Shown piece by piece: positions 5,032 to 21,486 of a stretch of 64,000 nt of DNA. Position numbers and translations under genes: made by a program. Within the stretch, counting starts at the first letter, position 1. Every line of letters starts with the position of its first letter. The DNA comes from an uncultured Acidobacteriota bacterium (GTDB lineage: Bacteria; Acidobacteriota; Vicinamibacteria; Vicinamibacterales; UBA2999), in NCBI GenBank assembly GCA_963709325.1, contig CAVPVV010000003.1, forward strand, positions 2,561,147-2,625,146, given 5' to 3'. A model generated the notes under the pieces. It made no database searches and was not told where the DNA came from. It saw only the letters and a list, made by a program, of their open reading frames with translations.

Positions 5032-6489
5032 TCAGTACAACTTGGTTGAGCGTGCGATACGGCCGTTGACTCGGATCCACCGGACGTTGCCGCCGATCGC
5101 GCGGATGAACTCGAACGGCATGCCGATGTACGACCCGACGACCGCGTAGGCAATGTCCCGACCGTAGAAGGTGATGCCGACCTCAGGCTGGTTTGCCGCG
5201 GTCGTCACGGCCAGGCCATCGCCGCGCCGGCGCACGTCAATGGTGCCAACCGGCGGGCGCTCGTACCGGCCCTCGTATTCGGCCAAGGGGGGCTGCGCGG
5301 GCAGCGGCGTCGCGTGGAAGGTCATCGCCTCGTTCACGCCGCGATGGCCGATTGCCTGGCGAGGAGCGAGCGACGCGCCGGCACAGCGTTGAAGCAGGGC
5401 GGCTTCCACCTCCTGCACCAGCCGCCAGCCGTCCTGATGATTCGTGAGCACGGCAAACGCGAGGTTCCGCGCCGGAACGAGCTCGAGCAGCAGGCAATGG
5501 CCGTTCAGCGTTCCGCCATGCGCGAACGTCATCACATCGCCGACGGGCCTGAGGTGCCACCCCACGCCCATCTCGTCGCCGGTGCCGTTCTTCCGCAATT
5601 GCGCCGTCTGCATGGTCTCGAGCCGGGCGCGCGAGACATACGCCGCACCACCCGGCGACCGGCCATCGCCGAGATGAAAGCGCGCGTAGCGCATCAAGTC
5701 AGACAGCGAGGTCATCACGCCGCCGGCGGTCGTACTCGACGTCGTCTGGAACGGGCGAATGACTTCCGTTCGGCCTTCGCGATCCCTGTGGCCGAGCGAC
5801 ATCCGCCACGTCATGGCGTCGGTCAACCGTGTGAACGTCCGCGACAGCCCGAGCGGCGTGAACACGAGATCCTTGAGCGCGTCATGGATCGACCGTCCGG
5901 TCACGACCTCGATGATTCGCCCCGTCAGTGCGAAGCCGGCGTTGTTGTAGCTCCACACTTCGCCGGGATCGGCGAGCTTCGGCAGCGTCGGCATGATGGT
6001 GGACACGAACTGCGACAGCGCGTCGACGCCGCGATCTTCGGTGCCAAGCTGACCCTCCCAGCCAGGCGTGTGGGTCAGGAGATGCCAGGGCGTCACGGTC
6101 TGGCTCACCACGTCGTCGCGGACGCGGAAGTCGGGCAGCCACGTCCGGACCGGTGATCGCAGGTCGAGCCGGCCTTCCTCGACCAGCTTCATCACCGCCG
6201 TCGCCGTCATCGTCTTGGAGATGGAGGCGATGGTGAACAGCGTGTCTTCCGTGACCGGTTGCGGATCGTCGAGTCGTGTGACGCCAAATCCGCGCAGGTG
6301 CAGCTGATCTCCCTCGAGCAGGCCGAGCGCGACGCCCGGCACGTGGTGGTCGGCCATGCGCTTCTGGACCAGCGCGGCGATCTCGTCGAAGCGTGAATCG
6401 GAGCCGGAAGTCTGGCCCCGCGCGCCGGCTCGCGTGGAGGCAAGCACGGCGGCCGTGGTCGACAGCTGAAGGAAGTCGCGGCGACGCAT
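5032..6489 (-). CDS. Serine hydrolase, beta-lactamase/transpeptidase-like (class C / EstB-like), exported
   Basis: 485-aa ORF with a Tat-like N-terminus MRRRDFLQLSTTAAVLAS. Motifs present: SxxK (SISKTM) and YxN (YNNAG). Confidence 0.8.
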   Translation of the reverse strand: MRRRDFLQLSTTAAVLASTRAGARGQTSGSDSRFDEIAALVQKRMADHHVPGVALGLLEGDQLHLRGFGVTRLDDPQPVTEDTLFTIASISKTMTATAVMKLVEEGRLDLRSPVRTWLPDFRVRDDVVSQTVTPWHLLTHTPGWEGQLGTEDRGVDALSQFVSTIMPTLPKLADPGEVWSYNNAGFALTGRIIEVVTGRSIHDALKDLVFTPLGLSRTFTRLTDAMTWRMSLGHRDREGRTEVIRPFQTTSSTTAGGVMTSLSDLMRYARFHLGDGRSPGGAAYVSRARLETMQTAQLRKNGTGDEMGVGWHLRPVGDVMTFAHGGTLNGHCLLLELVPARNLAFAVLTNHQDGWRLVQEVEAALLQRCAGASLAPRQAIGHRGVNEAMTFHATPLPAQPPLAEYEGRYERPPVGTIDVRRRGDGLAVTTAANQPEVGITFYGRDIAYAVVGSYIGMPFEFIRAIGGNVRWIRVNGRIARSTKLY

Positions 6490-7857
6490 GTGTCACAGTT
6501 TACGGTTCCAGGCGCCGACTCGCGATGTGCTACCTTCGTCGCGCCGTTGATGCTGAACCGCCTGCTGGCCAGGATCGGGCTCGTCACGCCCGAACAGCGA
6601 GCCTGGGCCTGGTACGACTGGGCCAATTCCACCTACTTCACCACCGTGATCACGGCGGTGTTCCCGAGCTTCTTCGCCACCTACGCCGCGGCGGGGCTCG
6701 CTCCGGCCGCCGCCACCGCCCGTTACGGCTTGATCACGACGATCTCGATCGCCTTTGTCGCGATCACCGCGCCGGTCCTGGGCGCGCTGGCCGACTACAG
6801 CGGCATCAAGAAGCGGCTGCTCGGCCTGTTCATGGTTGTCGGAGTCATCAGCTGCGCGGCGATGGTATTCATCGGCAAGGGCGACGTCGGACTGGCGTCC
6901 GCGCTCTTCTTCGTCGGCAACATCGGGGTGTCGGGGTCGTTGGTCTTCTACGACTCGCTGCTGCCGCACGTCGCCGCGCCCGAGGAGACCGACCGTGTCT
7001 CCGCGGCCGGCTACGCGATCGGGTACGTCGGCGGCGGCACACTGCTGCTCGTCAACCTCGCCTGGATCCTGCAACCGCAGTGGTTTGGTTTCGGATCGAC
7101 GACCGCGGCTGTCAAAGCGTCGTTCTTCTCGGTCGCCGTCTGGTGGGCCGTGTTCTCCATTCCGCTCTTCCGCGGCGTGCCCGAGCCGCCCAGCCCACAC
7201 GATCCGGACGATGTGCGGCAGGGATCGGCGATCACGGCGGCGTTCGTGCGCCTCGGGCACACGTTCCGGGAGATGCGGCGCTACCGGCAGGCGTTCATCT
7301 TCTTCCTGTCGATGCTCCTCTACCAGGACGGGATCCAGACGATCATCCGGATGGCCGCGGTCTACGGCGCGGAGATCGGCATCGACCAGACCGCGCAGAT
7401 TGCGGCGTTCGTCATGGTCCAGTTCGTCGGAATCCCGTTCTCGTTCCTGTTCGGGTCGCTCGGCACGAGGATCGGAACCAAGCGCGCCATCTTCATCGCG
7501 ATTTCCGTCTACGCGCTCGCGACCGTGCTCGGGTATTTCATGAGCACGGTGACGCACTTCTTCGTGCTGGCCGGGCTGGTCGCGACGGTTCAAGGCGGCG
7601 CGCAGGCCCTCAGCCGGGCGCTGTTCTCGCGGATGATTCCGGCCAACAAGACGTCGGAGTTCTTCGGGTTCTTCGCGGTCGCCGAGCGCTTTGCGACGGT
7701 GCTCGGCCCGCTGGTCTTCACTGTGAGCGTAGCGGTCACAGGGTCCAGCCGCTCTGCGGTTCTCGTGATCCTGCTGTTCTTCGTCGCCGGCGCCTGGCTT
7801 CTCAGCCTTGTCGATGAAGAAGAGGGCGTGCGCGCGGCCTTCAAAGCACTACCGTAA
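6490..7857 (+). CDS. MFS transporter, UMF1/Atg22-like family
   Basis: 455-aa polytopic ORF with WAWYDWANSTYFTTVITAVFPSFF near the N-terminus. The true start may be the ATG at 6549 (MLNRLLARIG). Confidence 0.75.
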   Translation: MSQFTVPGADSRCATFVAPLMLNRLLARIGLVTPEQRAWAWYDWANSTYFTTVITAVFPSFFATYAAAGLAPAAATARYGLITTISIAFVAITAPVLGALADYSGIKKRLLGLFMVVGVISCAAMVFIGKGDVGLASALFFVGNIGVSGSLVFYDSLLPHVAAPEETDRVSAAGYAIGYVGGGTLLLVNLAWILQPQWFGFGSTTAAVKASFFSVAVWWAVFSIPLFRGVPEPPSPHDPDDVRQGSAITAAFVRLGHTFREMRRYRQAFIFFLSMLLYQDGIQTIIRMAAVYGAEIGIDQTAQIAAFVMVQFVGIPFSFLFGSLGTRIGTKRAIFIAISVYALATVLGYFMSTVTHFFVLAGLVATVQGGAQALSRALFSRMIPANKTSEFFGFFAVAERFATVLGPLVFTVSVAVTGSSRSAVLVILLFFVAGAWLLSLVDEEEGVRAAFKALP

Positions 7858-10291
7858 ACAGCTGCAGCGCCGCCCAGTAATACGGCTTCGGGTAGCCGTT
7901 CGCAATGAGGGCGCGCTTGGCCTCGCGCAAGGCCACCGCCGGTGGCGCTCCCGCAGCCAGCCGCGCATACAGATCGTTCATCAGCGCGGCCGTGGATCGG
8001 TCGTCCACGTCCCACAGGCCGGCCACGACGCGACGAGAACCGGCCCGCAGGAACGCCCAGGCGAAGCCAATCAGCCCTTCGCCAGCGTAGGCACGCTCGC
8101 CGGCGCTGCGGCAGGCCGACACCGTGACGAGATCCGCCCTCAGCGGCAACGCCGCCACCTCGCGCGCGTAGAGTTTGAAGCCGTGATCCGGCCCAGACAG
8201 AATCACTGCAGAGTCCAGCGGGCTTTCGAGATTCGCGACCGCGTGCGAGGTGAAATGAATCATCGAGAATCCTTCCGGCTTCGCGGCCCTGAACCCCGCA
8301 GGCGACGCCTTCTCGCCGGCGATCACGGTTACCGAGGCCGGAGGAAAGTGCGAGCGCACGGCGTCCATTTCGGCAGGCGCATAGCTGAGCGCCGGGAACT
8401 CGGGCGGACGGGGCGCGGCGTTGCCGACAAGCAGAAGCGACGGCGGCGGGACCGGCCGGCTGCCGGCCTCGAGCATCGCCAGCGACGGTGCGATCTGAAC
8501 CGTCACGTCGTCGATCCAGTAATGACGCGGCGCGCCGGGCACCGGGATCGTTTCGAAGTTCAGGCGATGGAGCGCTCCGTCGGGAACGATGACCACCGAG
8601 GCGGTAGACGCGATGGCGGCGGAAATGGGCTCGACCAGCGTTGAATACAGCCGATCGCCGGGTCGATTCGCCGCCGATAGCGGGTCGACGAGCGCGTTCT
8701 GGATCGCCGCCTGGTGCTCGGTGACGAGCGGCGCGATGTCGTTCGATCCCGCGAGGGGCACCGCGCGGATCTCCCGCCCGGTGACCGTCCACACCCACGA
8801 CCGCTCGGCGCCGAGCGCGTAGAACACCATCGCCGTGTTCGTGCGTCCGGCAAGGCGCTTCAGGGCGGCGGCCGAGGCGTGTACTGCCGGTGCTGCCACT
8901 CCCTGGCGCTCGGCCAGAACTCGAGCCCGACTGGCGTCGGCGACCTCGAGCGCGCGTTCGACCTGGCCCTGCGAGAGCAGCAGCTCGGTATAGCCGCGAT
9001 AGAACGCGACGAGCCGCGACGTGAAAGAGATCCGGTCGTCGGCGCGAAGGAGCGACGATCGCGTCTGCTCGACGATGACCAGCGCTGCTTCGAATTGACG
9101 CGCGGCCTCGGCCGGCTGCCCGCTCGCGGTGGCCAGGCGGGCGAGCCCCTCGCAGGCCATCCATCGAACTCCGGGCGTGGCCTTCGGGTCCGAGACCGCC
9201 TGTCGGAACAGGCGGGCCGCGTCTTCGCCGTGACCACGTCCCGCCGCAATCCTGCCGTCGGTGACGAGCGCATACGGCGACGGGCCGCCGCTGGACGACT
9301 GTGCGAGCCGCGCCGCCTCCTGGTTGTAATGCGCCGCATCGTCCCACTGCTCCATCGCCACGTAGGCGGCCGCCAGGTTGCGCGCGAACAGCGCGGCGTC
9401 GCTCGCCAGGCCCGCGTCAGCGGCAATGCCGAAAGCGCGGCGTAGGTACTCCACGCTTTGCGCGTAGTCCTCGCGCAGCAGATACGTGCTTCCCAATTCC
9501 CCAAGGGCCTGCGCCAGGCTCTGTTTGCGTCCCGATTCCTGACTCGCGACCGCGCGTTGTTGCAAGGCAATCGCCTGGTCGAACTGACCGAGACGCGCGT
9601 GGCAGAGGCCGGCGTTGTTGAACGCCTGGGCCTGGACGGTAGTCCCCTCGAGCTCCGGGTTCTCGACGATACGCTCGAAGTGCGGGAGCGCTTCGTCATA
9701 GCGGCCGCGCGTGACGAGCCCCATGCCGCTCGCTATGGACACCTGGGCGAGGCGATACGGGTCGCCCTCTGCAGACACGCGCTTGAGCGTTGCGCCAAGA
9801 AGCGTGTCGGCTTGGACCGCGCGGCCGGTTCGATAAAGAACCTGGCTTTCGAGCAGCTCGAGGTCGGCGAGAAGCGCCGGATCAGCATCGGCAAGTGGTT
9901 TCGCAGCAGCAATCAGGGCTGGCGCCTCGTCGAGCTGCCCTTGCGCGACCTTTGAACGGGCCTGGAGTTGCAGCTGGCGCCCGCGAACGGGGTTGAGCCC
10001 GGACCGCTGGGGAACCGTGTCATCGAGCCAGCGCCTGGCCGCGGCGAGGTTGCCGCGACTGAGCTCGGCGTCGGCAACCAGCAGCCTGAATCGCCAAGTT
10101 CGGAGCTCATCGCCGGCCCGTTCGGCTCGCGCCGCGCCGTCCGCGGCAGCCTCGAGCGCACCGTCGATCCTGCCGCGCCGCATCTGCTCCTGTGCGGACG
10201 CGTAATCGCGATCGAGAGCAGACGGCGAGGACCCGCACGCGATCGACAGGATCGCCGCGACCGCCGCCAGCGCGACGCATCGACCGCCCAC
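7841..10291 (-). CDS. TPR-repeat + CHAT-domain (caspase-fold) protease, with N-terminal signal/lipoprotein-like peptide
   Basis: 816-aa ORF. N-terminus is MGGRCVALAAVAAILSIACGSS. It has a long alpha-helical TPR-like region and a C-terminal CHAT domain with His (IHFTSHAV) and Cys (LVTVSACRSA) dyad contexts. Confidence 0.85.
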   Translation of the reverse strand: MGGRCVALAAVAAILSIACGSSPSALDRDYASAQEQMRRGRIDGALEAAADGAARAERAGDELRTWRFRLLVADAELSRGNLAAARRWLDDTVPQRSGLNPVRGRQLQLQARSKVAQGQLDEAPALIAAAKPLADADPALLADLELLESQVLYRTGRAVQADTLLGATLKRVSAEGDPYRLAQVSIASGMGLVTRGRYDEALPHFERIVENPELEGTTVQAQAFNNAGLCHARLGQFDQAIALQQRAVASQESGRKQSLAQALGELGSTYLLREDYAQSVEYLRRAFGIAADAGLASDAALFARNLAAAYVAMEQWDDAAHYNQEAARLAQSSSGGPSPYALVTDGRIAAGRGHGEDAARLFRQAVSDPKATPGVRWMACEGLARLATASGQPAEAARQFEAALVIVEQTRSSLLRADDRISFTSRLVAFYRGYTELLLSQGQVERALEVADASRARVLAERQGVAAPAVHASAAALKRLAGRTNTAMVFYALGAERSWVWTVTGREIRAVPLAGSNDIAPLVTEHQAAIQNALVDPLSAANRPGDRLYSTLVEPISAAIASTASVVIVPDGALHRLNFETIPVPGAPRHYWIDDVTVQIAPSLAMLEAGSRPVPPPSLLLVGNAAPRPPEFPALSYAPAEMDAVRSHFPPASVTVIAGEKASPAGFRAAKPEGFSMIHFTSHAVANLESPLDSAVILSGPDHGFKLYAREVAALPLRADLVTVSACRSAGERAYAGEGLIGFAWAFLRAGSRRVVAGLWDVDDRSTAALMNDLYARLAAGAPPAVALREAKRALIANGYPKPYYWAALQLFTVVL

Positions 10292-10297
10292 GGCACG

Positions 10298-11122
10298 CTA
10301 CTCCGGCCAGGATCCGTTCGTATCGACGTCGCTGACCGAGCCCGATCCGCCAGTCGGGGATCCCAGCTCCATCCTGATCATCACCAGCCGGCGGGTGCTC
10401 GACTGCACGATCAGCTCGCCGAAATAGAACTCACCGAGATTCGGGATGCGGATGCCGTTGCTGCCGATCTTCTCGGAGCGCGGATACTCGCGCCCGTTCT
10501 GCCAGTCCAGCGACGTGACGATGGTGCTGAAGACCATGTCGCGATCGCCGTGCTTCTGCGGGATGTCGCGGTTCTCGATCAGCTTGGCTCGGGTATCGGC
10601 CTTCTGGAACCGCTCGATCTCGATGACGACGTCGAGCTTGAAGCGTCCGTGCACGGGTGAGTCGAACGTCACGGTCGAGACCTTGGCCGACTCGACGATC
10701 ACCGACGATTCGTGGCCTGGCTTGCTGCTCCGCGACACCAGCGCCGCCGACACGTCGGCCACGCGCATTGTCGGCTCCGGTTCGTCGTTGCGATTGAGCG
10801 GCGGCGCGCCGCCGATCTCGACGCCCTGGCAGCGGGCGCTGACGCGGGTGGTCGCGGTGAGCGATTCCGCCGGCATCTGGCGGCGAGTGACGCGGATCGC
10901 GTCCTTCATGTTGTCGACGAGGCCTTCAGCGAACGTTTCCGCCTGCCGGATCCGGAACGAGCGGCCGAGCTTGATGTCGCGCTCCCGCCAGACCGATCGG
11001 CCGCCGGTGATCGACAGCGCGCTCCCGCCGCTCGAAGCGAGCACCACGTTATCGGGGCGCACGAAGTGGCCGCCGAACGCAGCCGCGCTACCGTTGAACA
11101 GGAAACGGCGAGTCAATTCCAT
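10298..11122 (-). CDS. Hypothetical 274-aa protein, no domain recognised; lies 6 nt upstream of the TPR-CHAT gene
   Basis: Clean ORF in a sensible frame with no competing real gene. It has no signal peptide or TM segment, looks beta-strand-rich, and has a Gly/Ser-rich C-terminal tail (GSPTGGSGSVSDVDTNGSWPE). Confidence 0.6.
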   Translation of the reverse strand: MELTRRFLFNGSAAAFGGHFVRPDNVVLASSGGSALSITGGRSVWRERDIKLGRSFRIRQAETFAEGLVDNMKDAIRVTRRQMPAESLTATTRVSARCQGVEIGGAPPLNRNDEPEPTMRVADVSAALVSRSSKPGHESSVIVESAKVSTVTFDSPVHGRFKLDVVIEIERFQKADTRAKLIENRDIPQKHGDRDMVFSTIVTSLDWQNGREYPRSEKIGSNGIRIPNLGEFYFGELIVQSSTRRLVMIRMELGSPTGGSGSVSDVDTNGSWPE

Positions 11123-11140: not shown

Positions 11141-11235
11141 GTGAGAAGTGAGCGGTGGAAATGAGAAGCAAGCCCGAAGCTGGAATTACCGCCTGTTACT
11201 TAGCTTCTCACCTCTCACTTCTCGCTTCTTACTTC
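11141..11235. repeat. GTGAGAA-family purine/pyrimidine-asymmetric hairpin repeat (copy 1 of 3)
   Basis: Left arm gtgagaagtgagcggtggaaatgagaagcaagc pairs with right arm gcttctcacctctcacttctcgcttcttacttc. The right arm encodes the last codons of the anti-sigma gene (..SEVRSEK*). Confidence 0.75.
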
Positions 11236-11955
11236 GGAGACGGTGAACTTGTATTCCAGCGACGCTGACCCGGGCGCGCCGGAGGTTCCGACGGACAAGG
11301 TGTAGCGGCCGGCAGAGTCCAGCGCTGATGCGGGAATCAGCAGCAGCAGCGGCGTGCCGGGGGGAGGGGCCGCAGCGGTTCCGGACGCCACCGACACGCC
11401 GTCGGCGGCGCGGAGATCATACGTCAGGCTGGCGCCGGCGGCGACGGCACCGAGATCGACGGCCAGGGCGAGGACGCCGGCGGCTGGCCGCGTCAGCGTC
11501 GGCTCCGTCCCGCGCGAGGCCCCTCGCAGCGTGACCGGCGACAACACGGTCGGACCGATGATCTGCTCGCGAAGAGCGGGAACCACCCACAGCGCCTGGT
11601 AGCCGGCGACGAGGGTGAGCATCGCCGCGGCGGCCCATGGCAGCGCCGAACGCCACACCTGGGGCGTGGCACGTGGGACCTGGGGCTTGAGGCTTGGGGC
11701 CTGGGGCCTGGAGAGGTCCTGGGGTTTCGGGGTCTTGAGGTCTTGGGGGCGTGACGTCCTGGGGGCTTGGACTCCCGACTGCGGCAGAAGTCCCGCCTTG
11801 ACACCTTCCTGCATGAGGGCACCGGTCCTCACGTCCTCGGCGCAAATCGGGCAGGCGAAGAGATGTTCCTCGAACGCGAAGCGCTCGAGCTCCGGCATGT
11901 CGTCGAGCAGATAGCGCTCGGCGGCGTGCTTCTCGACGGCCTGCTCGTGTGTCAC
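11215..11955 (-). CDS. Anti-sigma factor, zf-HC2 type, single-pass membrane protein
   Basis: 246 aa. It has the HxxxCxxC motif (HLFACPICAEDV), a Pro-rich linker, one TM segment (WAAAAMLTLVAGYQALWVV) and a ~120-aa extracytoplasmic domain. Its start overlaps the sigma gene stop by 4 nt. Confidence 0.8.
   Translation of the reverse strand: MTHEQAVEKHAAERYLLDDMPELERFAFEEHLFACPICAEDVRTGALMQEGVKAGLLPQSGVQAPRTSRPQDLKTPKPQDLSRPQAPSLKPQVPRATPQVWRSALPWAAAAMLTLVAGYQALWVVPALREQIIGPTVLSPVTLRGASRGTEPTLTRPAAGVLALAVDLGAVAAGASLTYDLRAADGVSVASGTAAAPPPGTPLLLLIPASALDSAGRYTLSVGTSGAPGSASLEYKFTVSEVRSEK
11659..11714. repeat. Tandem heptamer array (CTGGGGC-like x8, phase-preserving) embedded in the anti-sigma CDS
   Basis: Plus strand reads CTGGGGC GTGGCAC GTGGGAC CTGGGGC TTGAGGC TTGGGGC CTGGGGC CTGGAGA. 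It is translated on the minus strand as RPQAPSLKPQVPRATPQ. Confidence 0.7.
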
Positions 11956-12632
11956 GCGTCCATCCCCTCAGCGGCGCCGCCCTGGAACCGCTCGCGAAAC
12001 TTTGCCTTGGCGCGGTGGACGAGGACGCGCAGGTAGTTGCGGTCCACGTTCAGTGCGCGGCAGATGTCGTCCTTGTCCCGTTCCTCGAAAAACAACCATC
12101 GCAGCAGCTCCTGCTCGCGGTCCGGTAGGGCCGCCAGCGCTTCTCGAACCTGTTCCCGCTCCTCCGCCCGCAACAGCCCCGATTCCACGCTCGGCCGCTG
12201 CTCGTCCACCTGTTCGTGCCCTTCGGCCAGCTGCTGCACCTTGGCACCGGCGCGATAGCACTCGAACAGCACGTTGTTGCAGACGCTGTTCACGAACGCG
12301 CCGAGGCTTTCGGCCGATGCCAGCCCGCCGCGCTCCTTCAGCGTGGTCAGCACGCGCCGGAACGTCTCCTGGCGCGCGTCCTCGACCAGCGCGGCCGATC
12401 GCAGCCGCGAACGGAGCTTCAAGGTCAGCAGGTCCCCGAAGTAGCGAACGAAATGGCGCTCGGTCTCGGGATCGCCGCCGACCAGCCGATCCAGGTATTC
12501 ACGATCGAATTCAAACCGTTGGAGCCGCAAGCTCCGAATCGTATCCGCCTTCACTCCCTTTGGAAACCCACGGGAGCTTCGGCGGCAAACCCGGCTTCGT
12601 CGCACCTGCCGCACTGGCGGCACCGGCCGCAC
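11952..12632 (-). CDS. ECF-type RNA polymerase sigma-70 family factor
   Basis: Has a sigma-2-like region (FVRYFGDLLTLKLRSRL...ARQETFRRVL) and a sigma-4 HTH (LPDREQELLRWLFFEERDKDDICRALNVDRNYLRVLVHRAKAKFRE). The listed start gives an Arg-rich extension; TTG at 12530 (193 codons) is a more typical start. Confidence 0.8.
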   Translation of the reverse strand: MRPVPPVRQVRRSRVCRRSSRGFPKGVKADTIRSLRLQRFEFDREYLDRLVGGDPETERHFVRYFGDLLTLKLRSRLRSAALVEDARQETFRRVLTTLKERGGLASAESLGAFVNSVCNNVLFECYRAGAKVQQLAEGHEQVDEQRPSVESGLLRAEEREQVREALAALPDREQELLRWLFFEERDKDDICRALNVDRNYLRVLVHRAKAKFRERFQGGAAEGMDA

Positions 12633-12729
12633 TTGAGTGTGTGGTGTCGGACGGGGGTCGAACGTTACACCTCTGTCGCTGAAACGCCGGACCGACCGGC
12701 GACACTAGGGGTATGCAGCCGGAGCAATC

Positions 12730-13893
12730 ATGACGAACGGAACAGGTCACGAGCCATTTTTCGTCGGGTCCAGCGCCCTGAGCCGGCAGCTGGTCAACGA
12801 AATCGAGGTGGCCGCGCGATCGGACGCGAAAGTGCTCGTCACCGGTGAGACCGGGGTGGGCAAGGACGTGGTCGCGCGGCTGCTCCATCAGCGAAGTGCG
12901 CGCCGAGGGGCGCCGCTGGCTACCATCAACTGCGCGGGGCTGCCGGATAGCCTGCTCGAGTCGGAGCTCTTCGGCCACGTGCGCGGCAGCTTCACCGGCG
13001 CCGTCCGCGACAAGGCCGGCCTGCTCGAGACCGCGGATCGCGGCACTGCATTCCTGGACGAGGCCGGCGAAATGAGCCTCCGCATGCAGGGAATGCTGCT
13101 CCGCTTTCTCGAGACCGGCGAGGTGCAGCGCGTCGGCTGCGAGCGGACCAACCGCCGCGTCAACGTGCGCATCATCGCTGCGACGAATCGCGACCTGGCG
13201 CAGCACATCGCGAACGGCCTGTTCCGCAGGGACCTCTATTACCGGTTGAACGTCATCCGCATCCACGTCGCCCCGCTCCGCGAGCGGACCGAAGACATCG
13301 CCGATCTGTTCGAGTTCTTTGCCGCGGGGTTCGCGCGTCACTACCACGTCGGCGTCCGCACGTTGACCGCCGAGGCGCGGCGCCTGCTGGCGACCTACAG
13401 CTGGCCGGGCAACGTGCGCGAGCTGAAGAACCTCGCCGAACGGCTCGCGGTCCGGGGAGCCGGCGAGCCGGTCCGCCCCGAGCACCTGCCGCTCGAGTAC
13501 CTGCACGGCGTCCCGATTCCCGCCGACGCGAGCGCGCTCGATCCGAACGGGTCAGCGATGGAGGCCGGCCCGGCACCCGAAAATCACACTCTGCTTCGGC
13601 GCCTGCTCTACGAGCGCGAATCGTTCTGGACGGTGGTGCACAGACCCTTCATGGATCGCGATCTCTCGCGAGAACAGCTGCGCGATCTGATTCGCGCCGG
13701 ACTCGAGCGGACGAGCGGCAATTACCGCCTGCTGGTAGAGCTGTTCAACATGGCGCCGTCCGATTACAAGCGGTTCCTCGGATTCCTGCGCAAGCACGAC
13801 TGCCAGGTGCCGTTCCACCCATTTCGATCCGTGCGATCGCTGCCGATCCCGCACGCCGGTGCGGGCGACCCGACGCAGGCGGCGGCGATGTGA
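12730..13893 (+). CDS. Sigma-54-dependent transcriptional activator (bEBP) lacking an N-terminal sensory domain
   Basis: The AAA+ domain starts about 15 aa from the N-terminus. Motifs: Walker A GETGVGKD, a GAFTGA variant GSFTGA, ESELFGH, Walker B FLDEAGE. The C-terminal HTH-like segment is SGNYRLLVELFNMAPSDYKRFLGFLRKH. Confidence 0.85.
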   Translation: MTNGTGHEPFFVGSSALSRQLVNEIEVAARSDAKVLVTGETGVGKDVVARLLHQRSARRGAPLATINCAGLPDSLLESELFGHVRGSFTGAVRDKAGLLETADRGTAFLDEAGEMSLRMQGMLLRFLETGEVQRVGCERTNRRVNVRIIAATNRDLAQHIANGLFRRDLYYRLNVIRIHVAPLRERTEDIADLFEFFAAGFARHYHVGVRTLTAEARRLLATYSWPGNVRELKNLAERLAVRGAGEPVRPEHLPLEYLHGVPIPADASALDPNGSAMEAGPAPENHTLLRRLLYERESFWTVVHRPFMDRDLSREQLRDLIRAGLERTSGNYRLLVELFNMAPSDYKRFLGFLRKHDCQVPFHPFRSVRSLPIPHAGAGDPTQAAAM

Positions 13894-14944: not shown

Positions 14945-16101
14945 ATGGCGTTCGAGACCACCCGTCGGGACATGTTGAAGACCAGCCTTGCCGGCGGCGC
15001 GGCCTGCTGGCCGTGCCGGAGTGGGCCCTGCCCACGCTGGCCCAGGGCGAAACGGTGGTGCCGTTTGCCGACTGGCCGGACAAGTTCGATCCGAACCCGG
15101 CGCCCGACCGCCGGCTGTTCGACAGCCGCACTATCAGCGGCCCGATGACGCCGAAAGACCAGTTCTTCACCACCCAGCACTACGGGCATCCAGTGGTCGA
15201 CCCGGCGACCTATCGGCTGAAGATCTCGGGGCTGGTCAACTCGTCGATGTCGCTCTCGCTCGACGAGGTCCGCAAGATGGGCAATGCCGAGATGATTCTC
15301 GGCTTCGAGTGCTCGGGCAACCGCCGCCCGCTGCAGGGCCTGATCGGCAACGGCAAGTGGACCGGCGTGCCGCTGAAGACCGTGCTCGACAAGGCCGGCC
15401 TCAAGCCGAACGCGCGCGAGATCGTCTTTTTCGGCGCCGACCGGGGCCAGGAGGAAGTCGAGTTCCGGGCCCAGAAGTTCAACGTCGAGCAGCAGTACGG
15501 CCGCAGCATGCCGCGCGACAAGGCGCTCACCACCGAGGCCTTCCTCGCCTACGCGCTCAACGGAGAGCCGCTCACCCGCCACCAGGGCTCGCCGCTCCGC
15601 CTCATCGTCCCCGGCTGGTACGGCGCGCCGAACGTCAAGTGGCTGTCGGAGATCCACGCCCAGGAGGATCAGTACCTCGGCAAGTTCCAGGCCCGCTGGT
15701 ACCGCACGCTGAAGGGCGAGATGATCGACGGCGAGATGAAGTGGGTGGAATCGGCCATCACCCACCTGCAGCTCAAGTCGTTCGTCGCCCGGGTGACGAA
15801 GGCCGGCAATCAGTACAAGGTGCTGGCGGTGGCGCTCAACGACGGCACACCGCTCAAGACCGTCGAGCTGAAGGTCGACGACGGCCCGTGGCAGGCGATG
15901 ACGGCGGACCCATCGACCAACGCGAAGTACGGCTGGAAGTTCTACAACTACACGTGGAACGGCACCGCCGGTGAGCACACGCTGGTCTCGCGGGCCACCG
16001 ACGCCAACGGCCAGGTCCAGCCAACTGAGAAGGATCTCGAGAACAAGAAGACGTTCCTCGAGGACAACTCGCAACAGCCACGCAAGCTGACGCTCGCCTG
16101 A
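14945..16101 (+). CDS. Sulfite-oxidase-family molybdopterin oxidoreductase (SorA/YedY-like) with Tat signal; apparent 1-nt frameshift near 14993-15003
   Basis: AAGGAG lies 8 nt before the ATG at 14945. The Tat signal MAFETTRRDMLKTSLAGGAA is in one frame. The catalytic part (ORF 15013..16101; Mo-ligand Cys context GFECSGNRR, plus dimerisation domain) is in another frame. The junction would read ...GGAA(G)LLAVPEWALP. Confidence 0.8.
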
Positions 16102-16209: not shown

Positions 16210-18846
16210 TCACGTCCGCCGCAGGCTCTCGAGCGGATCGATCGTGGCCGCGCGACGCATCGGCAGCCAGGTTGCGACCAGTGACGCGACCAGCGTCAAC
16301 GCGATCGCCACGCCGTAGGTAACGACGTCGGCCGGCGTAACGCCAAACAGCAGCGACGCAATCGATCTGGCGAGCCCGTAGGCGCACACGGCGCCGATGG
16401 CGATGCCGACGATCGACAACTTCACGCTCTGGCCGATCACCTGCCGCGCGATCACCCGGGTGGGCGCACCGAGCGCCAGGCGTACGGCGATTTCGCCCGA
16501 GCGTTGGCTGACCGCGTACGACATCACCCCGTACAGCCCGGCCATCGCCAGCAGGATGGCGATCGTCGCAAACGCCGCGAACATCCCGCTCAGGAGAAAG
16601 TTCGACGAGTTCTCGTCCTCCATCGCCGCGGCGACGGTACGCAACTGGTAGGCCGGCAAGTCCGGATCGACGTCGCTGATCGCCTGGCGCAGCGGCCGTG
16701 CCAGCGATGCGGGCGCTGCCGCACGGAGGATGACATTCGTGGTCCGCGTCGGACGATGCTCGTCGAGCAGGTAGAGCGTCGGCATCGACGGTTCGGTGAT
16801 CATCGGATTCGCAACGTTGCGAGCCACGCCAATCACGGCGGCCTCGAGTGGCACTCCAGCCGGATCGGCGATGCGAACGGTCGAGCCGATCGCTTCGGAT
16901 GACGAAGGCCAGAAGCGGCGTGCGGCTTCCGCCGAGACCACGACGACCGCGCGAGGGCTGCTGGCATCCGCCGCTTCGAAGCCGCGCCCGGCGAGAAGTG
17001 GTACGCCGACCACCCTGAAATAGTCGGCGCTCACGACGGTGAGGCCGGCCGTGGGGCGGTCGCGCTCGTCCGCTGGTGGACGGCCGCCGATATCGAACGC
17101 CACGTTGTCGGCAAACTGCAGCGCCGGAAGCACGGTGGCCAGGGCCGCCGCTTCGACGCCGGGGATGTCCCGCACCCGCGCCAGGAGGCGTTGGCGCAGG
17201 CGGAGGGCCGCCTGATCGTCCTCGGTTTTCCATCTGGCGACGTCAATCTGCGCGCTCACGAGCGGGGACGGGTCGTAGCCAAGGTCGGCCACCACGATCG
17301 CCTGCATCGATTGGACGACGAGCGCGGCCACGATCAGCAGCGTCACGGCCAGCGAGACCTGCAGTACCACGAGTGCCGAGCGGCCGCGGGCCGCGGTCGC
17401 GCTGCCGACGGTGCGCGTCGATCCTTCCGAGAGCGTGGCCCTCACATCGTCGCGGAGGACGCGGAGCGTCGGGATGACGGAGAACGCGAGCGGCGTGACG
17501 AACGCGAGCGCCACCGCGAACAGCACCACACCGAAGTCGATCTGGAGCTGGCGGAAGAACGGCTCGGTGGACACGGCGTGAACGCCGGCGAGGCCTACCC
17601 ACGCGACCAGCAAGCCGAGCAACCCGCCGGCCACGCCCAGCATCAGGCTCTCGCCGATGATCTGCCTGACCACGCGCCCGCGCGTCGCGCCGAGAGCAGT
17701 CCGCACGGCCAGCTCCTGACGCCGGCCGATCAACCGCGCGATCAGCAGGTTCATGACGTTCGCGCAGGCGAGGAGCAGCAGCAGGCCGACCACGACCGAC
17801 AGCAGCGACAGGACCAGCCACGTGTTGGCGCCGCCGAGCGCCTGCCTGGTGGTACCGACACGAGCCGTCCAGTCGCGGTTCGTGTCAGGGTGCTCGCGGC
17901 GCAAGCGCTCGACGATTGCCGCTACCTGCACATGCGCGTCAGCGATCGTGGCGTGCTCTCGCAGGCGCCCGACTGGACGCCATCCTCGATAAGCACGTGA
18001 CGCCAGTGCCGGATCGCCGGTGTAGGGCAGCCAGACATCGATCTCCGAGATGTTGCCGAGCTCGATATCGGGCGCGACCACGCCGACGATCGTGTGAGGC
18101 ACGCCGTCGATCACGAAACTCCGGCCGATCACCCGCTCGTCGGCGCCAAATCTTGCAGTCCAGAACTGGTGGGCAAGGACGGCCACGCGCGGCGAGCCCG
18201 GCTGCTCGTCGGCCCCGCTCAGCAGCCGTCCACGCGCCGCCTTCAGTCCCCACAATCCCTGAAGATTCCCGATGACCATCTGCGCCAGCACGCGGTCCGA
18301 CTGATCGCGCTCACGCATCGTCACCGGCTGGCGGCGCCACGCGGCGAGCTGCGTGAAGGTCGAAACCTCGTCGCGGAACGCCGCGTACTCCGGCAGCGAC
18401 GTGCCAGCCCGATCCGGAGAGGCGCCGGGCATCGTCCCGAGAATCCAGCCGAGCCGATCGGGCCTGTCGAACGGCAGCGGCTTGAGCACGAGGATGTTGG
18501 CGATGTTGAAGATGAGCGTGTTGGCGCCGATCGCCAGCGCCAGGGTCACGACCGCGGCCCAGGAGAACGCGGGCTGGGTGACGAACAGGCGGACGCCGCG
18601 CACGAAATCTCGCAGCATGGTGAGCATGAGGCTGTCTCCGGAAGAATGCGGGGCTGGACGGGGACGGCGGCGGTGAAGATGCCAGCAGACGCCGGCCGCG
18701 CGACGCCAATAGCGGAATCGCGCACGACGAGGGGCACTGCGCAGCTCGTCGGCGAAGATTTCGGAGAGGTCGCCGAGTGCTGCCTCGGCGAATCGCGCGT
18801 CAATCAGATGCCGAACGAGCCGCTGCGGGAGGAGCGGCGGCGTCAT
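16210..18846 (-). CDS. ADOP-family duplicated MacB/FtsX-like permease
   Basis: 878 aa. The N-terminal 'permease prefix' region is LVRHLIDARFAEAALGDLSEIFADE. Two MacB_PCD/FtsX halves are present, and the start overlaps the upstream PadR gene by 4 nt. Confidence 0.85.
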   Translation of the reverse strand: MTPPLLPQRLVRHLIDARFAEAALGDLSEIFADELRSAPRRARFRYWRRAAGVCWHLHRRRPRPAPHSSGDSLMLTMLRDFVRGVRLFVTQPAFSWAAVVTLALAIGANTLIFNIANILVLKPLPFDRPDRLGWILGTMPGASPDRAGTSLPEYAAFRDEVSTFTQLAAWRRQPVTMRERDQSDRVLAQMVIGNLQGLWGLKAARGRLLSGADEQPGSPRVAVLAHQFWTARFGADERVIGRSFVIDGVPHTIVGVVAPDIELGNISEIDVWLPYTGDPALASRAYRGWRPVGRLREHATIADAHVQVAAIVERLRREHPDTNRDWTARVGTTRQALGGANTWLVLSLLSVVVGLLLLLACANVMNLLIARLIGRRQELAVRTALGATRGRVVRQIIGESLMLGVAGGLLGLLVAWVGLAGVHAVSTEPFFRQLQIDFGVVLFAVALAFVTPLAFSVIPTLRVLRDDVRATLSEGSTRTVGSATAARGRSALVVLQVSLAVTLLIVAALVVQSMQAIVVADLGYDPSPLVSAQIDVARWKTEDDQAALRLRQRLLARVRDIPGVEAAALATVLPALQFADNVAFDIGGRPPADERDRPTAGLTVVSADYFRVVGVPLLAGRGFEAADASSPRAVVVVSAEAARRFWPSSSEAIGSTVRIADPAGVPLEAAVIGVARNVANPMITEPSMPTLYLLDEHRPTRTTNVILRAAAPASLARPLRQAISDVDPDLPAYQLRTVAAAMEDENSSNFLLSGMFAAFATIAILLAMAGLYGVMSYAVSQRSGEIAVRLALGAPTRVIARQVIGQSVKLSIVGIAIGAVCAYGLARSIASLLFGVTPADVVTYGVAIALTLVASLVATWLPMRRAATIDPLESLRRT

Positions 18847-19212: not shown

Positions 19213-20310
19213 CTAGGGGAGCGGAATGCGGACGACGTCCCCGACCGCTGGCAGGCTGCTCTTCCGGGTGACGTAGGCCGCCCGGTCCGGACCGATCGCC
19301 ACGCCGCCCGGCCACGTCAGACCCGCGCTGGCGATGACCGTCCGCGAGCCGTCGGGCATGACCCGCGTCAAGCGACCGTCCTGGCTGGGACCGAGCAGGC
19401 CGTCGATGTCGTGCTCGAGCACGTAGGCGGCGCCGTCTGCGCCGATCGCGAGATCGATGATCATCGTGAAACCGGTCGCGACCTGGGCTGGCGTCCCGCC
19501 GTGGCCGGCACGCGCCACAGCGAGGCTGCGCCCGGCGTAAACGGGAACCCGGTCAACTGGCCGACGTAGATGCTGCCGTCCGGCGCCGGCGGCAAGGCTG
19601 GTCGCCACCGGATCGGTCGTGCCACCGGTCGGCGTGTTGACCCGCGGCAGCACGGTGAAGTTCGAAATCCCCAGATTCGCGCCGATTTGATTGATGGCGT
19701 TCCCACCCGCATCGGCGAACAGCGCGCGGTTGGACTGAATCAGCAGCTTGAACGGGTTGGAGTCCACCGGCCCGCCGTCGGGGTTGGCCGTTGCCTCGAA
19801 CCTGGACAGATCGAGTTGGTAGCTCCAGTCGCCGTTCATCGACGCGCGGGCCAGCCACCCCATTCGGATCCCCGACGCCTCGAGTGCGGCCCTCGATGCG
19901 GGATCGCCGCCCAGGCCGATCGTGATCCACATGCTGCCAAACCCGAAATCTACGTCATTGGGGCCCGCCGCCTGCGCACCAGTCGGGACTGCGACGGACG
20001 GCAGGTTCGTGACCACTCGTTGCTGCACCAGCAGTCCGGAGATGCGGGTGATCGCACCGGTCGGCCCCAGGCATCGCGTCGGCGGAAACGGTGGTGCGGT
20101 GTCCGGCAGGCACAGCGGACTGGTGCCGCCTCGTCCTGCCTCGGCGACGTAGAGCGCGCCGTCGGGACCGAACGTGATACCGCGGGGGTTGTCGAGGCCG
20201 GTCGCGACGACCAGCATGGTCGGCGTCTGCGCGACAAGGGGAGCGATTGCCAGGACGATGGCAAAGGACAATGCGGCGGCGAATGCCGCGCGCACGGGTG
20301 ATCTGAGCAT
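19213..20310 (-). CDS. ScyD/ScyE-family (NHL-like) beta-propeller secreted protein; contains a compensated double frameshift (~19500 and ~19585)
   Basis: Listed only as the tail of the 757-aa ORF. It has its own AGGAGG 7 nt before the ATG at 20310 and a signal peptide MLRSPVRAAFAAALSFAIVLAIAPLVAQ. GLDNPRGITFGPDGALYVAEAG is present. The family-typical PDGSIYVGQLTGFPFTPGAASLWRV is encoded in a different frame (ORF 19461..19712). Confidence 0.7.
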   Translation of the reverse strand: MLRSPVRAAFAAALSFAIVLAIAPLVAQTPTMLVVATGLDNPRGITFGPDGALYVAEAGRGGTSPLCLPDTAPPFPPTRCLGPTGAITRISGLLVQQRVVTNLPSVAVPTGAQAAGPNDVDFGFGSMWITIGLGGDPASRAALEASGIRMGWLARASMNGDWSYQLDLSRFEATANPDGGPVDSNPFKLLIQSNRALFADAGGNAINQIGANLGISNFTVLPRVNTPTGGTTDPVATSLAAGAGRQHLRRPVDRVPVYAGRSLAVARAGHGGTPAQVATGFTMIIDLAIGADGAAYVLEHDIDGLLGPSQDGRLTRVMPDGSRTVIASAGLTWPGGVAIGPDRAAYVTRKSSLPAVGDVVRIPLP

Positions 20311-20378
20311 GCAACTACCTCCTGAACGCCTGTAACTGCAGGCGCAGGCGGCAATCGTGCAACCCGCAGGTCCAGCGC

Positions 20379-21486
20379 TCAGCCCAACCGCTTCGAGGAT
20401 CGGAGCGCCGCCAGGGCCAGCGACCGTCGTGCCCCAGGCCAACAGCGCCAGTGCCTGCGGCCACAGCGTCTCGAGGCCGACACCCTTCAGAAAGATTCCG
20501 CGGACGATCACGAGGAAGTAACGCAGCGGAATCAGGTAGGTCGCCGGCTGGATCCAGGCGGGCATGTTCTCGATCGGAAACACGAAGCCCGACAGGTAGA
20601 CCATCGGCATCATGAAGAAGAACGTGGTCGTGAGCATCGCCTGCTGCTGCGTGTTCGAGATGCTCGAAATGAACAGGCCGAGGCCGAGTGTCGAGAGGAG
20701 GTAGATGAGGCTCATCCCGAAGAGCAGCACCACGCTCCCGCGCATCGGGACCTCGAACCAGTAAAGCGCCACGATGAGGACGAGCACGACGTCTACGACG
20801 CCGATCATTCCGTACGGCAGAAGCTTCCCGACGATCAACTCCCAGCGCGCCAGCGGCGTGACGTTGAGCTGCTCGAGCGTGCCCACCTCCTTCTCACGAA
20901 CGATCGCCATTGCCGACAGGTTGGTGGTCACCACGAGGAGCAGAAGCGCGACGATGCCCGGGATCATGAAGTCGCGGCTTTCGAGCTCCGGGTTGAACCA
21001 GACCCTGAGCTCCAGCGATACGGGCGGCGCCGCTCCGCCACCGGGCGTCAGGTCCTGGGCAAAGCCGGCAACCAGCGCCCGCGCGTAGCCCATCGCGACG
21101 GTCGTCGAATTCGAGTCGGTGCCGTCGGCCACCACCTGGAGCGTGACTGGCTGATGGCTCTTCACCCTCTCGGCGTAGTCCGGTGGCAGGCTCAGCGCCA
21201 TCCAGGCCGTGCCGCGATCCAGCCACGGATCGATCTCGCCGGTCGAGTCGAGGATACCGACCACCTTGAAGTTCGCTGATGCCTGAAAGCGTGCGACGAG
21301 CGCGCGGCTCTCCGCGGATCGATCCGGATCGACGATGACGATCGGCACGTCCTTCACGTCGGTCGTCGCCGCGTAGCCAAGGACGGTCAGCTGGACGATC
21401 GGTGCCAGGATGACGATCCCGAACAGCCGCGGATCCTGCCGGAGCTCCAGCAGTTCCTTCTTCACCAGGTGCAGCACGCGTCGCAT
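20379..21486 (-). CDS. ABC-2 type transporter permease (YbhR/YbhS-like); 1-nt frameshift near 20425 removes its stop
   Basis: This is the N-terminal 355 aa of the 757-aa ORF. Shifting frame after ..LLAWGTT gives SLALAALRSSKRLG* (stop 20379-20381), which parallels the C-terminus of the paralogue at 21494..22621. Confidence 0.8.

Follow-up and report, generated by a model that had tools for sequence, protein, structure and literature searches.

DUF8256, an obligate component of an extracytoplasmic function sigma factor and TPR-CHAT protease cassette in Acidobacteriota

Introduction

The gene considered here lies on the minus strand of a 64,000-nucleotide stretch of DNA from an uncultured Acidobacteriota bacterium (contig CAVPVV010000003.1), the whole of which is hereafter called the window. 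Its product is a protein of 274 residues that belongs to the uncharacterized Pfam family DUF8256. DUF8256 is an obligate part of an Acidobacteriota envelope-signaling cassette that comprises, in addition, a sigma factor of the extracytoplasmic function (ECF) type, a zinc-finger anti-sigma factor with a transmembrane helix, and a lipoprotein protease made of tetratricopeptide repeats and a CHAT domain (TPR-CHAT). From sequence and from structural models, it is most likely that DUF8256 is cytoplasmic and that the protease is extracytoplasmic. This mismatch of compartments is the central puzzle of the system. As a tentative answer, it can be proposed that DUF8256 is a dedicated cytoplasmic partner of TPR-CHAT, acting as an inhibitor and/or a chaperone before the protease is exported.

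A Conserved Cassette in Acidobacteriota

The four genes of the cassette are found in the window as follows.

11952..12632, minus strand: open reading frame of the ECF sigma factor (TIGR02937 sigma70-ECF, E=1.1e-14, above the cut-off; Sigma70_r4_2, E=7.4e-7)
11215..11955, minus strand: anti-sigma factor gene, 246 residues, with an N-terminal zinc finger, one transmembrane helix and a periplasmic domain of about 120 residues
10298..11122, minus strand: DUF8256 gene, an ATG-to-TAG open reading frame with a translation of 274 residues and its stop codon at 10298-10300
7841..10291, minus strand: TPR-CHAT lipoprotein gene, 816 residues, GTG start, with a Pfam CHAT match (E=5.7e-54) and many TPR repeats

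A scan that took one genome from each GTDB species gave 49 loci, 44 of which had enough DNA on both flanks. Gene order was scored by searching all the open reading frames of a locus with the four window proteins. The same-strand order sigma factor, anti-sigma factor, DUF8256, TPR-CHAT was found in 43 of the 44 loci, and it is retained by DUF8256 relatives at only 23-32% identity. The reverse test, which started from a TPR-CHAT homologue with 40% identity, likewise found DUF8256 encoded upstream. No DUF8256 gene was encountered outside the cassette among the homologues and loci examined. The original prediction, made from the window alone, had linked the protein to the neighboring protease, and this link turned out to be stronger than could then be known, since every homologue examined is encoded between the anti-sigma factor and TPR-CHAT genes. 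Far from never being linked to CHAT or ECF genes, the homologues show this linkage down to 23-30% identity. The 49 loci are labeled Acidobacteriota or Vicinamibacterales almost throughout, and the window is 98% identical to one Vicinamibacterales metagenome-assembled genome.

The exception to the conserved order is locus L016 (4400-7600). There, the sigma and anti-sigma factor genes are mostly deleted and TPR-CHAT is reduced to the last few CHAT residues (VAGLWDVDDRSTAG), with the DUF8256 reading frame and the divergent activator gene (described below) intact. Either the cassette lost these parts recently or the locus is misassembled. A true arrangement that is under selection would speak for a CHAT-independent role of DUF8256.

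The DUF8256 Family and Its Predicted Structure

A word-indexed search of 5.8 billion proteins returned 79 cluster representatives, 96-31% identical to the window protein over 97-100% of the query and 268-291 residues long in nearly all cases. An exhaustive HMMER search of 1.84 billion representatives yielded 403 clusters (50% identity) at E<=1e-3, including 119 at E<=1e-10. With few exceptions, the clusters belong to the Acidobacteriota. All homologues, from 96% down to 23% identity and at 97-100% query coverage, bear the precomputed label PF26784, which corresponds to DUF8256; the PF26784 model postdates the local Pfam copy, and membership of the family was read indirectly, from the consistent labels of the homologues. 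Judged by this conservation of the protein sequence, down to about 23% identity, the open reading frame is far beyond chance. The window protein itself has no match in the local Pfam, NCBIfam and PADLOC libraries, and a sequence-profile search of the PDB returned nothing. Moreover, when 40 diverse members were scanned against Pfam, no weak match recurred, and no fusion of DUF8256 to another domain was seen across the family searches. The literature search found no paper that mentions DUF8256 or PF26784. Thus, of the early description of the protein as an orphan without recognized domain, the empty local libraries bear out the second part, and the 403 clusters with their PF26784 label contradict the first.

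In the family alignments, conservation is concentrated at both termini, with a variable middle region that carries insertions and deletions. The N-terminal motif reads M-x-L-x-R-R-F-[IVL]-F-x-G-x-A-x-A-x-x-G-x-x-x-R-P ... L-x-V-x-G-G-x-S, and the C-terminal one F-G-E-[IL]-x-[IV] ... R-R-L-T-M-x-R-x-x-L-G-S-P-x-G-G ... V-[DE]-T-N-G-x-W. Near-invariant positions are occupied by glycines, prolines, arginines and one glutamate, nearly all of them within these terminal segments. A catalytic-type set of Ser, His, Cys or Asp residues is absent from among them. Isoelectric points range from 5.1 to 10.7 in the family, and so give no sign of nucleic-acid or membrane binding; the strands of the window protein are charged, not membrane-like.

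The AlphaFold2 model of DUF8256, built with 31 sequences, has a predicted local distance difference test score (pLDDT) of 90.3 and a predicted template modeling score (pTM) of 0.88. It is an all-beta meander of about 19 strands, the long ones 11-15 residues in length, in line with the strand-rich character first guessed from the sequence. The C-terminal region had at the same time been described as a flexible Gly/Ser tail. This does not hold: the segment RRLTMxRxxLGSPxGG......V[DE]TNGxW is among the best conserved of the family, and residues 258-269 are modeled as a beta-strand (block pLDDT 86-93), disorder being limited to the last few residues. Structure prediction followed by a Foldseek search, the check suggested together with the original prediction, gave a confident model that matches no solved or viral fold. 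Against the PDB, none of the 50 matches listed was significant (best E 0.085, TM-score <=0.25), and the weak top matches were outer-membrane barrels aligned only as strings of beta-meander strands. The BFVD collection of viral structures gave no significant match either. No internal duplication was detected (hhalign probability 0.2%). Altogether, DUF8256 is a soluble, all-beta protein and is probably non-enzymatic.

Localization of DUF8256

The 25 N-terminal residues of the window protein have a mean hydropathy below 0, and the highest mean over 19 residues on the Kyte-Doolittle scale is 0.92, in agreement with the initial view that neither a signal peptide nor a transmembrane helix is present. 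In the family, the N-terminus is the best-conserved segment. It is modeled as an integral strand at pLDDT 94, as compared with 57-59 for the helix formed by the signal peptide of TPR-CHAT in the same pipeline. Residues V21, R22 and V27 are also among the top co-varying pairs with L68 and G258 of the core; as phylogeny confounds this mutual information signal, it is no more than suggestive.

The question of export is nevertheless raised by the N-terminal sequence T-R-R-F-I-F-R/N-G-x-A-A-A, which resembles the twin-arginine consensus S/T-R-R-x-F-L-K. DUF8256 could then be exported through a Tat-like N-terminus and, in the periplasm, either act as a modulator in the way of RseB/MucB or form a pseudosubstrate lid that controls the cleavage of the anti-sigma factor by TPR-CHAT. 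Such a location would resolve the mismatch of compartments. In the window protein the RR pair is followed by 15 uncharged residues, and the place of the gene fits that of RseB/MucB in rpoE/algU operons. As is well established, the gene found directly after the anti-sigma factor gene in these ECF operons, which encode or use a periplasmic protease, specifies a beta-rich protein, as does that of DUF8256. Among 151 representatives with the motif, however, RR is found in 113 and KR in 12, about 17% of members lack the first arginine, and in only 28 is the pair followed by 13 or more residues without charge. Conservation that peaks in this very segment is not what a signal peptide would show, and the same can be said of its strand conformation, its negative hydropathy and its co-variation with the core. 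Moreover, RseB and MucB have a signal peptide and a LolA-like fold, neither of which is found in DUF8256. These data make export very unlikely. Two candidate assignments were rejected accordingly. The first, a Tat-exported protein, is rejected for the family as a whole, and less firmly for the clade of the window. The second is membership of the RseB/MucB family, for which there is no Pfam match (MucB_RseB included), no signal peptide, and a LolA/LolB comparison (8orn_B) at only E 0.72 and TM-score 0.14.

The TPR-CHAT Protease and Its Coupling to DUF8256

In nearly every locus, the N-terminus of TPR-CHAT consists of a short run of basic residues, then a hydrophobic segment and a cysteine. The lipobox residue Cys19 is invariant in 53 of 53 aligned sequences. 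This residue and the signal peptide together predict an extracytoplasmic protein. The catalytic dyad, His683/Cys727, is invariant in 107 of 107 homologues. The AlphaFold2 model (pLDDT 89.5, pTM 0.80) retrieved DdvA as the best Foldseek match (8rw5/8rot, E ~1e-15), followed by Csx29 and then by separase. By sequence, a phmmer search of the PDB gave no CHAT match, and identity to DdvA is just 16%.

The clean reading frame and the 6-nucleotide distance from the protease gene that had first been described are both confirmed. The junction reads CCG GAG TAG CGTGCC GTG, where the 6-nucleotide spacer corresponds to positions 10292-10297 and the GGAG Shine-Dalgarno motif of the CHAT gene lies within the last two DUF8256 codons. 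Because the ribosome-binding site of the protease gene is located inside the end of the DUF8256 gene, this is an arrangement of classic translational coupling. Both genes are read in one and the same frame. Across the loci, the DUF8256-CHAT gap ranges from -4 to about +25 nucleotides. The gap between the anti-sigma factor and DUF8256 genes is 8-92 nucleotides in most loci, with a maximum of 292.

Co-evolution was studied in 36 cassettes by a mirror-tree approach, using Kimura distances, regression of each protein on the average of all the others and Mantel permutation. The pair DUF8256-CHAT gave a partial r of 0.52 (p=0.001), and sigma-anti-sigma, the positive control, 0.67 (p=0.001). The values for DUF8256-sigma (-0.05) and DUF8256-anti-sigma (0.05) were not significant. 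Co-variation thus weakly agrees with translational coupling in pointing to the protease as the partner of DUF8256.

What kind of partner remains to be considered. In the original prediction, small proteins encoded next to caspase-fold proteases were said to be often their substrates or effectors, and DUF8256 could accordingly be a gasdermin-like substrate or pro-effector of CHAT, in which cleavage, for instance in the C-terminal LGSPxGG motif, frees an active beta-rich fragment. The obligate and tight linkage to a CHAT domain that its dyad predicts to be catalytically intact, the co-variation of the two proteins and the conserved C-terminal segment would all fit. There is also a parallel in type III-E loci, where Csx29 cleaves Csx30 and where an ECF-like sigma factor is encoded as well (PMC10028731). 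The predicted compartments argue against this scheme, the protease being a lipoprotein and DUF8256 having no export signal. In addition, the N-terminus of DUF8256 is part of the fold, its C-terminal segment is a structural strand and not a detachable tail, and its strands lack membrane-like character. Neither gasdermin, MACPF nor any other pore-former fold was recovered by Foldseek at the scores given above, and PADLOC was empty. Thus, the substrate or effector role found no support here, and we regard it as quite unlikely. Bacterial gasdermins do resemble DUF8256 in their size (about 250-300 residues), in their position beside a caspase-fold protease and in having a conserved C-terminal segment. 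They differ in that DUF8256 has no gasdermin fold or profile, is accompanied by an exported protease and has a C-terminus that is an integral strand. Identification as a gasdermin or pore former was rejected (no gasdermin in the 50 listed Foldseek matches, no PADLOC hit, no Pfam hit for 40 members).

A related scheme turns the separation of the two proteins into the signal itself. DUF8256 would be a cytoplasmic pro-effector of a new fold, kept apart from its cognate, periplasmic TPR-CHAT by the inner membrane. Upon a breach, caused for example by phage holins or membrane-damaging toxins, its cleavage would report lost compartment integrity and trigger a response parallel to the sigma branch. 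This we consider extremely unlikely.

The Sigma Factor Branch and Its Probable Output

The zinc finger of the anti-sigma factor was matched by zf-HC2 with E=2.5e-4 (21.5 bits, just under the 22.2 cut-off) and by an NCBIfam anti-sigma model with E=7.9e-7. Its transmembrane helix is conserved in 36 loci. Just past this helix, the same 36 loci share a motif in the periplasmic stalk, L-x-P-[VI]-T-L-R-x-A-[ST]-R-G, found around residues 125-150 in the window protein. TPR-CHAT may recognize or cleave the anti-sigma factor at this motif. Another motif, [ST]R[GS]..EP.., was noticed both in the anti-sigma stalk and in the exposed DUF8256 loop 131-141; it was dropped because it occurs in only 15 of 197 DUF8256 members and 12 of 36 anti-sigma factors.

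Upstream of the sigma factor gene, the following elements are found.

12642..12669, minus strand: ECF-type promoter TGTAACG-N16-CACCA, ahead of the sigma operon
12680..12707, plus strand: second copy of the ECF-type promoter, facing the divergent sigma-54 activator gene
12730..13893, plus strand: gene of a sigma-54 enhancer-binding protein, 387 residues, with a GSFTGA loop (Sigma54_activat, E=6.5e-64, residues 12-179)

The promoters follow a motif, TG[TA]AACG-N16-CAC[CTA]A, that is found with fixed spacing in about 20 aligned sigma-upstream regions. It has exactly two matches in the 64-kb window, placed back to back, where 0.02 would be expected. Over the 49 loci there are 81 matches, and the back-to-back pair is present in most of them. 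The sigma-54 activator gene adjoins the sigma factor gene in 29 of 39 loci, divergently in 20 and co-directionally in 9. These data are most simply explained if the sigma factor switches on its own operon together with the activator, the latter being the probable transcriptional output of the cassette. Upstream of the sigma operons, sigma-54 promoters were not enriched over background. Because the AAA+ domain of the activator begins at residue 12, the protein has no N-terminal sensor domain.

The true start of the sigma factor is probably GTG 12554 or TTG 12530. A later start is favored because the longest open reading frame begins at 12632, only 10 nucleotides after the -10 element that ends at 12642. 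A TACGAT box (12543-12538, minus strand), conserved at the DNA level in distant loci, lies 7 nucleotides ahead of TTG 12530. It may be a second, housekeeping promoter that gives a leaderless transcript.

Several loci depart from this organization. In L034, L043, L051 and L052 (~6130-6650, minus strand), the divergent gene that follows the ECF promoter encodes only about 140-155 residues; its product keeps the C-terminal AAA+ motif GRFLEGLFYRLNVVTLE and lacks the remainder of the activator, as if a sigma-54 activator had been truncated or had degenerated. Seven loci (L031, L033, L039, L040, L042, L054 and L025), which form a subclade with a co-directional activator gene directly upstream of the sigma factor gene, have the ECF promoter motif a second time, between the sigma and anti-sigma factor genes (7257-7284 in L031, for example). 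In L028 (11459-11486) and L030 (5866-5893), both on the plus strand, an extra ECF motif is located just 3' of the TPR-CHAT gene, ahead of a gene whose product is secreted, has about 270 residues and contains no recognized domain. This protein may be a further member of the regulon.

One more element lies within the operon of the window.

11141..11232, minus strand: RNA hairpin that fills the 92-nucleotide gap between the anti-sigma factor and DUF8256 genes

Its minimum free energy is -50.5 kcal/mol (z = -3.84), and none of 200 shuffled sequences was as stable. No U-tract follows it, and the terminator scan was empty at this place. Such a long gap (88-92 nucleotides) is found only in the closest relatives of the window, as compared with about 10-45 nucleotides in most loci. 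The hairpin may act in mRNA processing or stability and so adjust the two gene pairs relative to each other.

The make-up of this branch suggests another role for DUF8256. Instead of being a partner of the protease, it would be a cytoplasmic signaling accessory, which regulates the sensor-less sigma-54 activator in trans or helps, once intramembrane cleavage has taken place, to retain or remove the sigma/anti-sigma complex, in the manner of an SspB-like adaptor. PspA, which regulates PspF, and HrpV, which regulates HrpS, are precedents. The idea draws on several features, namely that DUF8256 has no signal peptide, that the activator has no regulatory domain of its own, that it bears the ECF promoter of the operon and adjoins it in most loci, and that its partial correlation with DUF8256 reaches 0.32 (p=0.008). 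It should, however, be noted that DUF8256 is in every cassette, whereas the activator is missing beside about a quarter of them, including the most divergent members. Moreover, DUF8256 does not co-vary with either the sigma or the anti-sigma factor, and its gene is tightly coupled to that of CHAT and not to those of the regulators. An accessory role of this kind is thus doubtful.

The flanks of the cassette in the window contain the following genes, which look ordinary and without relation to it.

5032-6489, minus strand: beta-lactamase-family gene
6490-7857, plus strand: gene of an Atg22-like transporter of the major facilitator superfamily
15013-16101, plus strand: molybdopterin oxidoreductase gene
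16210-18846, minus strand: MacB/FtsX-type permease gene
19213-21486, minus strand: ABC-2 permease gene

A Possible Role for DUF8256

If DUF8256 is the dedicated cytoplasmic partner of TPR-CHAT, the following mechanism can be proposed. DUF8256 would be translated just ahead of the protease, from the coupled reading frame, and would bind the nascent protease, holding it inactive and/or export-competent until the Sec/lipoprotein pathway takes over. The conserved N- and C-terminal segments would form the putative binding surface. Once free in the periplasm, TPR-CHAT would serve, in response to a signal, as the site-1 protease that cuts the periplasmic anti-sigma stalk in trans. Cleavage of the stalk would then free the sigma factor, leading to the induction of the operon and of the sigma-54 activator. 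Dedicated protease partners are known from securin, which accompanies separase, and from the staphostatins, which accompany the secreted staphopains.

Several points weigh against this proposal. Sec passes lipoproteins through the membrane in an unfolded state, so it is not obvious why an inhibitor would be needed in the cytoplasm. With its 274 residues and its new fold, DUF8256 resembles neither the disordered securin nor the staphostatin barrels of about 110 residues, and Foldseek found neither of them. The mirror-tree analysis is weak evidence because the proteins are encoded in a single operon and the pairwise distances depend on each other; when the activator is added (21 loci), the partial correlation of DUF8256 with CHAT is 0.30, against the 0.32 that it shows with the activator. 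Finally, locus L016 retains an intact DUF8256 with most of CHAT deleted.

This last locus also fits a reading in which DUF8256, the sole non-regulatory gene of the operon, encodes a sigma-dependent stress effector with a protective cytoplasmic job unrelated to the protease. The promoter motif implies that DUF8256 is co-transcribed from the ECF promoter, and a soluble protein without signal peptide would suit such a function. On the other hand, the conserved residues are not enzyme-like, DUF8256 was not found outside the cassette, and neither the specific co-variation with CHAT nor the translational coupling to it would be expected of an effector. We therefore hold this role to be unlikely. A partnership with the protease before its export thus remains the interpretation that we tentatively prefer.

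Comparison With Known Systems

Among the closest known systems is DdvS/DdvA. In DdvA, an anti-sigma factor of Myxococcus xanthus, TPR-CHAT is periplasmic, and signal-induced cleavage of the stalk by CHAT was proposed to replace the site-1 protease (PMC11506125). The two systems have in common an ECF sigma factor, a zinc-finger anti-sigma factor, one transmembrane helix and an extracytoplasmic TPR-CHAT with a His/Cys dyad (PMC11506125; PMC6061681). Furthermore, DdvA is the best solved match of the TPR-CHAT of the cassette. One difference is that TPR-CHAT is fused to the anti-sigma factor in DdvA and is a separate lipoprotein here. According to the authors of the DdvA study, the fused architecture was reported only in Myxococcota and in one Comamonas. 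As the sigma factor, the anti-sigma factor, DUF8256 and CHAT are encoded by separate genes in 43 of 44 loci, the cassette represents a split variant and not the fused DdvA type. The outputs also differ, since the cassette apparently acts through a sigma-54 activator, whereas DdvS/DdvA controls a CBASS/CRISPR island. Moreover, the cassette has DUF8256 as an extra obligate component, for which the DdvA papers mention no counterpart. CHAT is not mentioned in the main text of the ECF classification paper.

A second parallel is offered by the Craspase of type III-E systems, the module of which contains Csx29 (TPR-CHAT), Csx30, Csx31 and CASP-sigma, Csx31 being a conserved accessory of unknown role (PMC10028731). 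Like the cassette, it has four genes, coding for a TPR-CHAT protein, a sigma inhibitor that is, or may be, the substrate, an ECF-type sigma factor and an accessory protein. Csx29 is also the second-best structural match of the TPR-CHAT of the cassette. However, Craspase is wholly cytoplasmic and guided by RNA, whereas the cassette has a lipoprotein protease, a membrane-spanning anti-sigma factor and no RNA guidance. As DUF8256 has no sequence match in NCBIfam or the PDB and no fold match, a likeness to Csx30 or Csx31 is unsupported. The cassette resembles both DdvS/DdvA and the Csx29/Csx30/CASP-sigma arm in the way it works, and it belongs to neither.

The third comparison is with securin and the staphostatins. 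Both are, as is well established, non-catalytic partners made together with a protease, which they keep inactive or help to mature. Staphostatins are beta proteins of the cytoplasm and protect against a secreted protease whose gene lies in their own operon. Separase is itself a TPR-like protease of the CHAT fold and a structural match of the protease of the cassette. The likeness does not extend to the structure of the partner, DUF8256 being all-beta and without fold match.

Significance

DdvA is the only CHAT protease domain that has been studied in ECF sigma factor signaling. Because the protease is fused to the anti-sigma factor in DdvA, the proposed site-1 cleavage is hard to separate from its substrate. 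In the cassette described here, the protease, the candidate substrate, the sigma factor, the promoter and the probable output are all separate, so the cleavage hypothesis can be tested in trans. The family itself was already catalogued and is uncharacterized; what is new is the split cassette, which occurs in another phylum and with one extra gene. This gene, DUF8256, is the sole obligate part of the cassette without a counterpart in known sigma/anti-sigma or caspase-fold systems and without a solved structural relative. Its role could reveal a new mode of control of an exported caspase-like protease, and would give a function to several hundred sequence clusters in the abundant and poorly studied Acidobacteria of soils.

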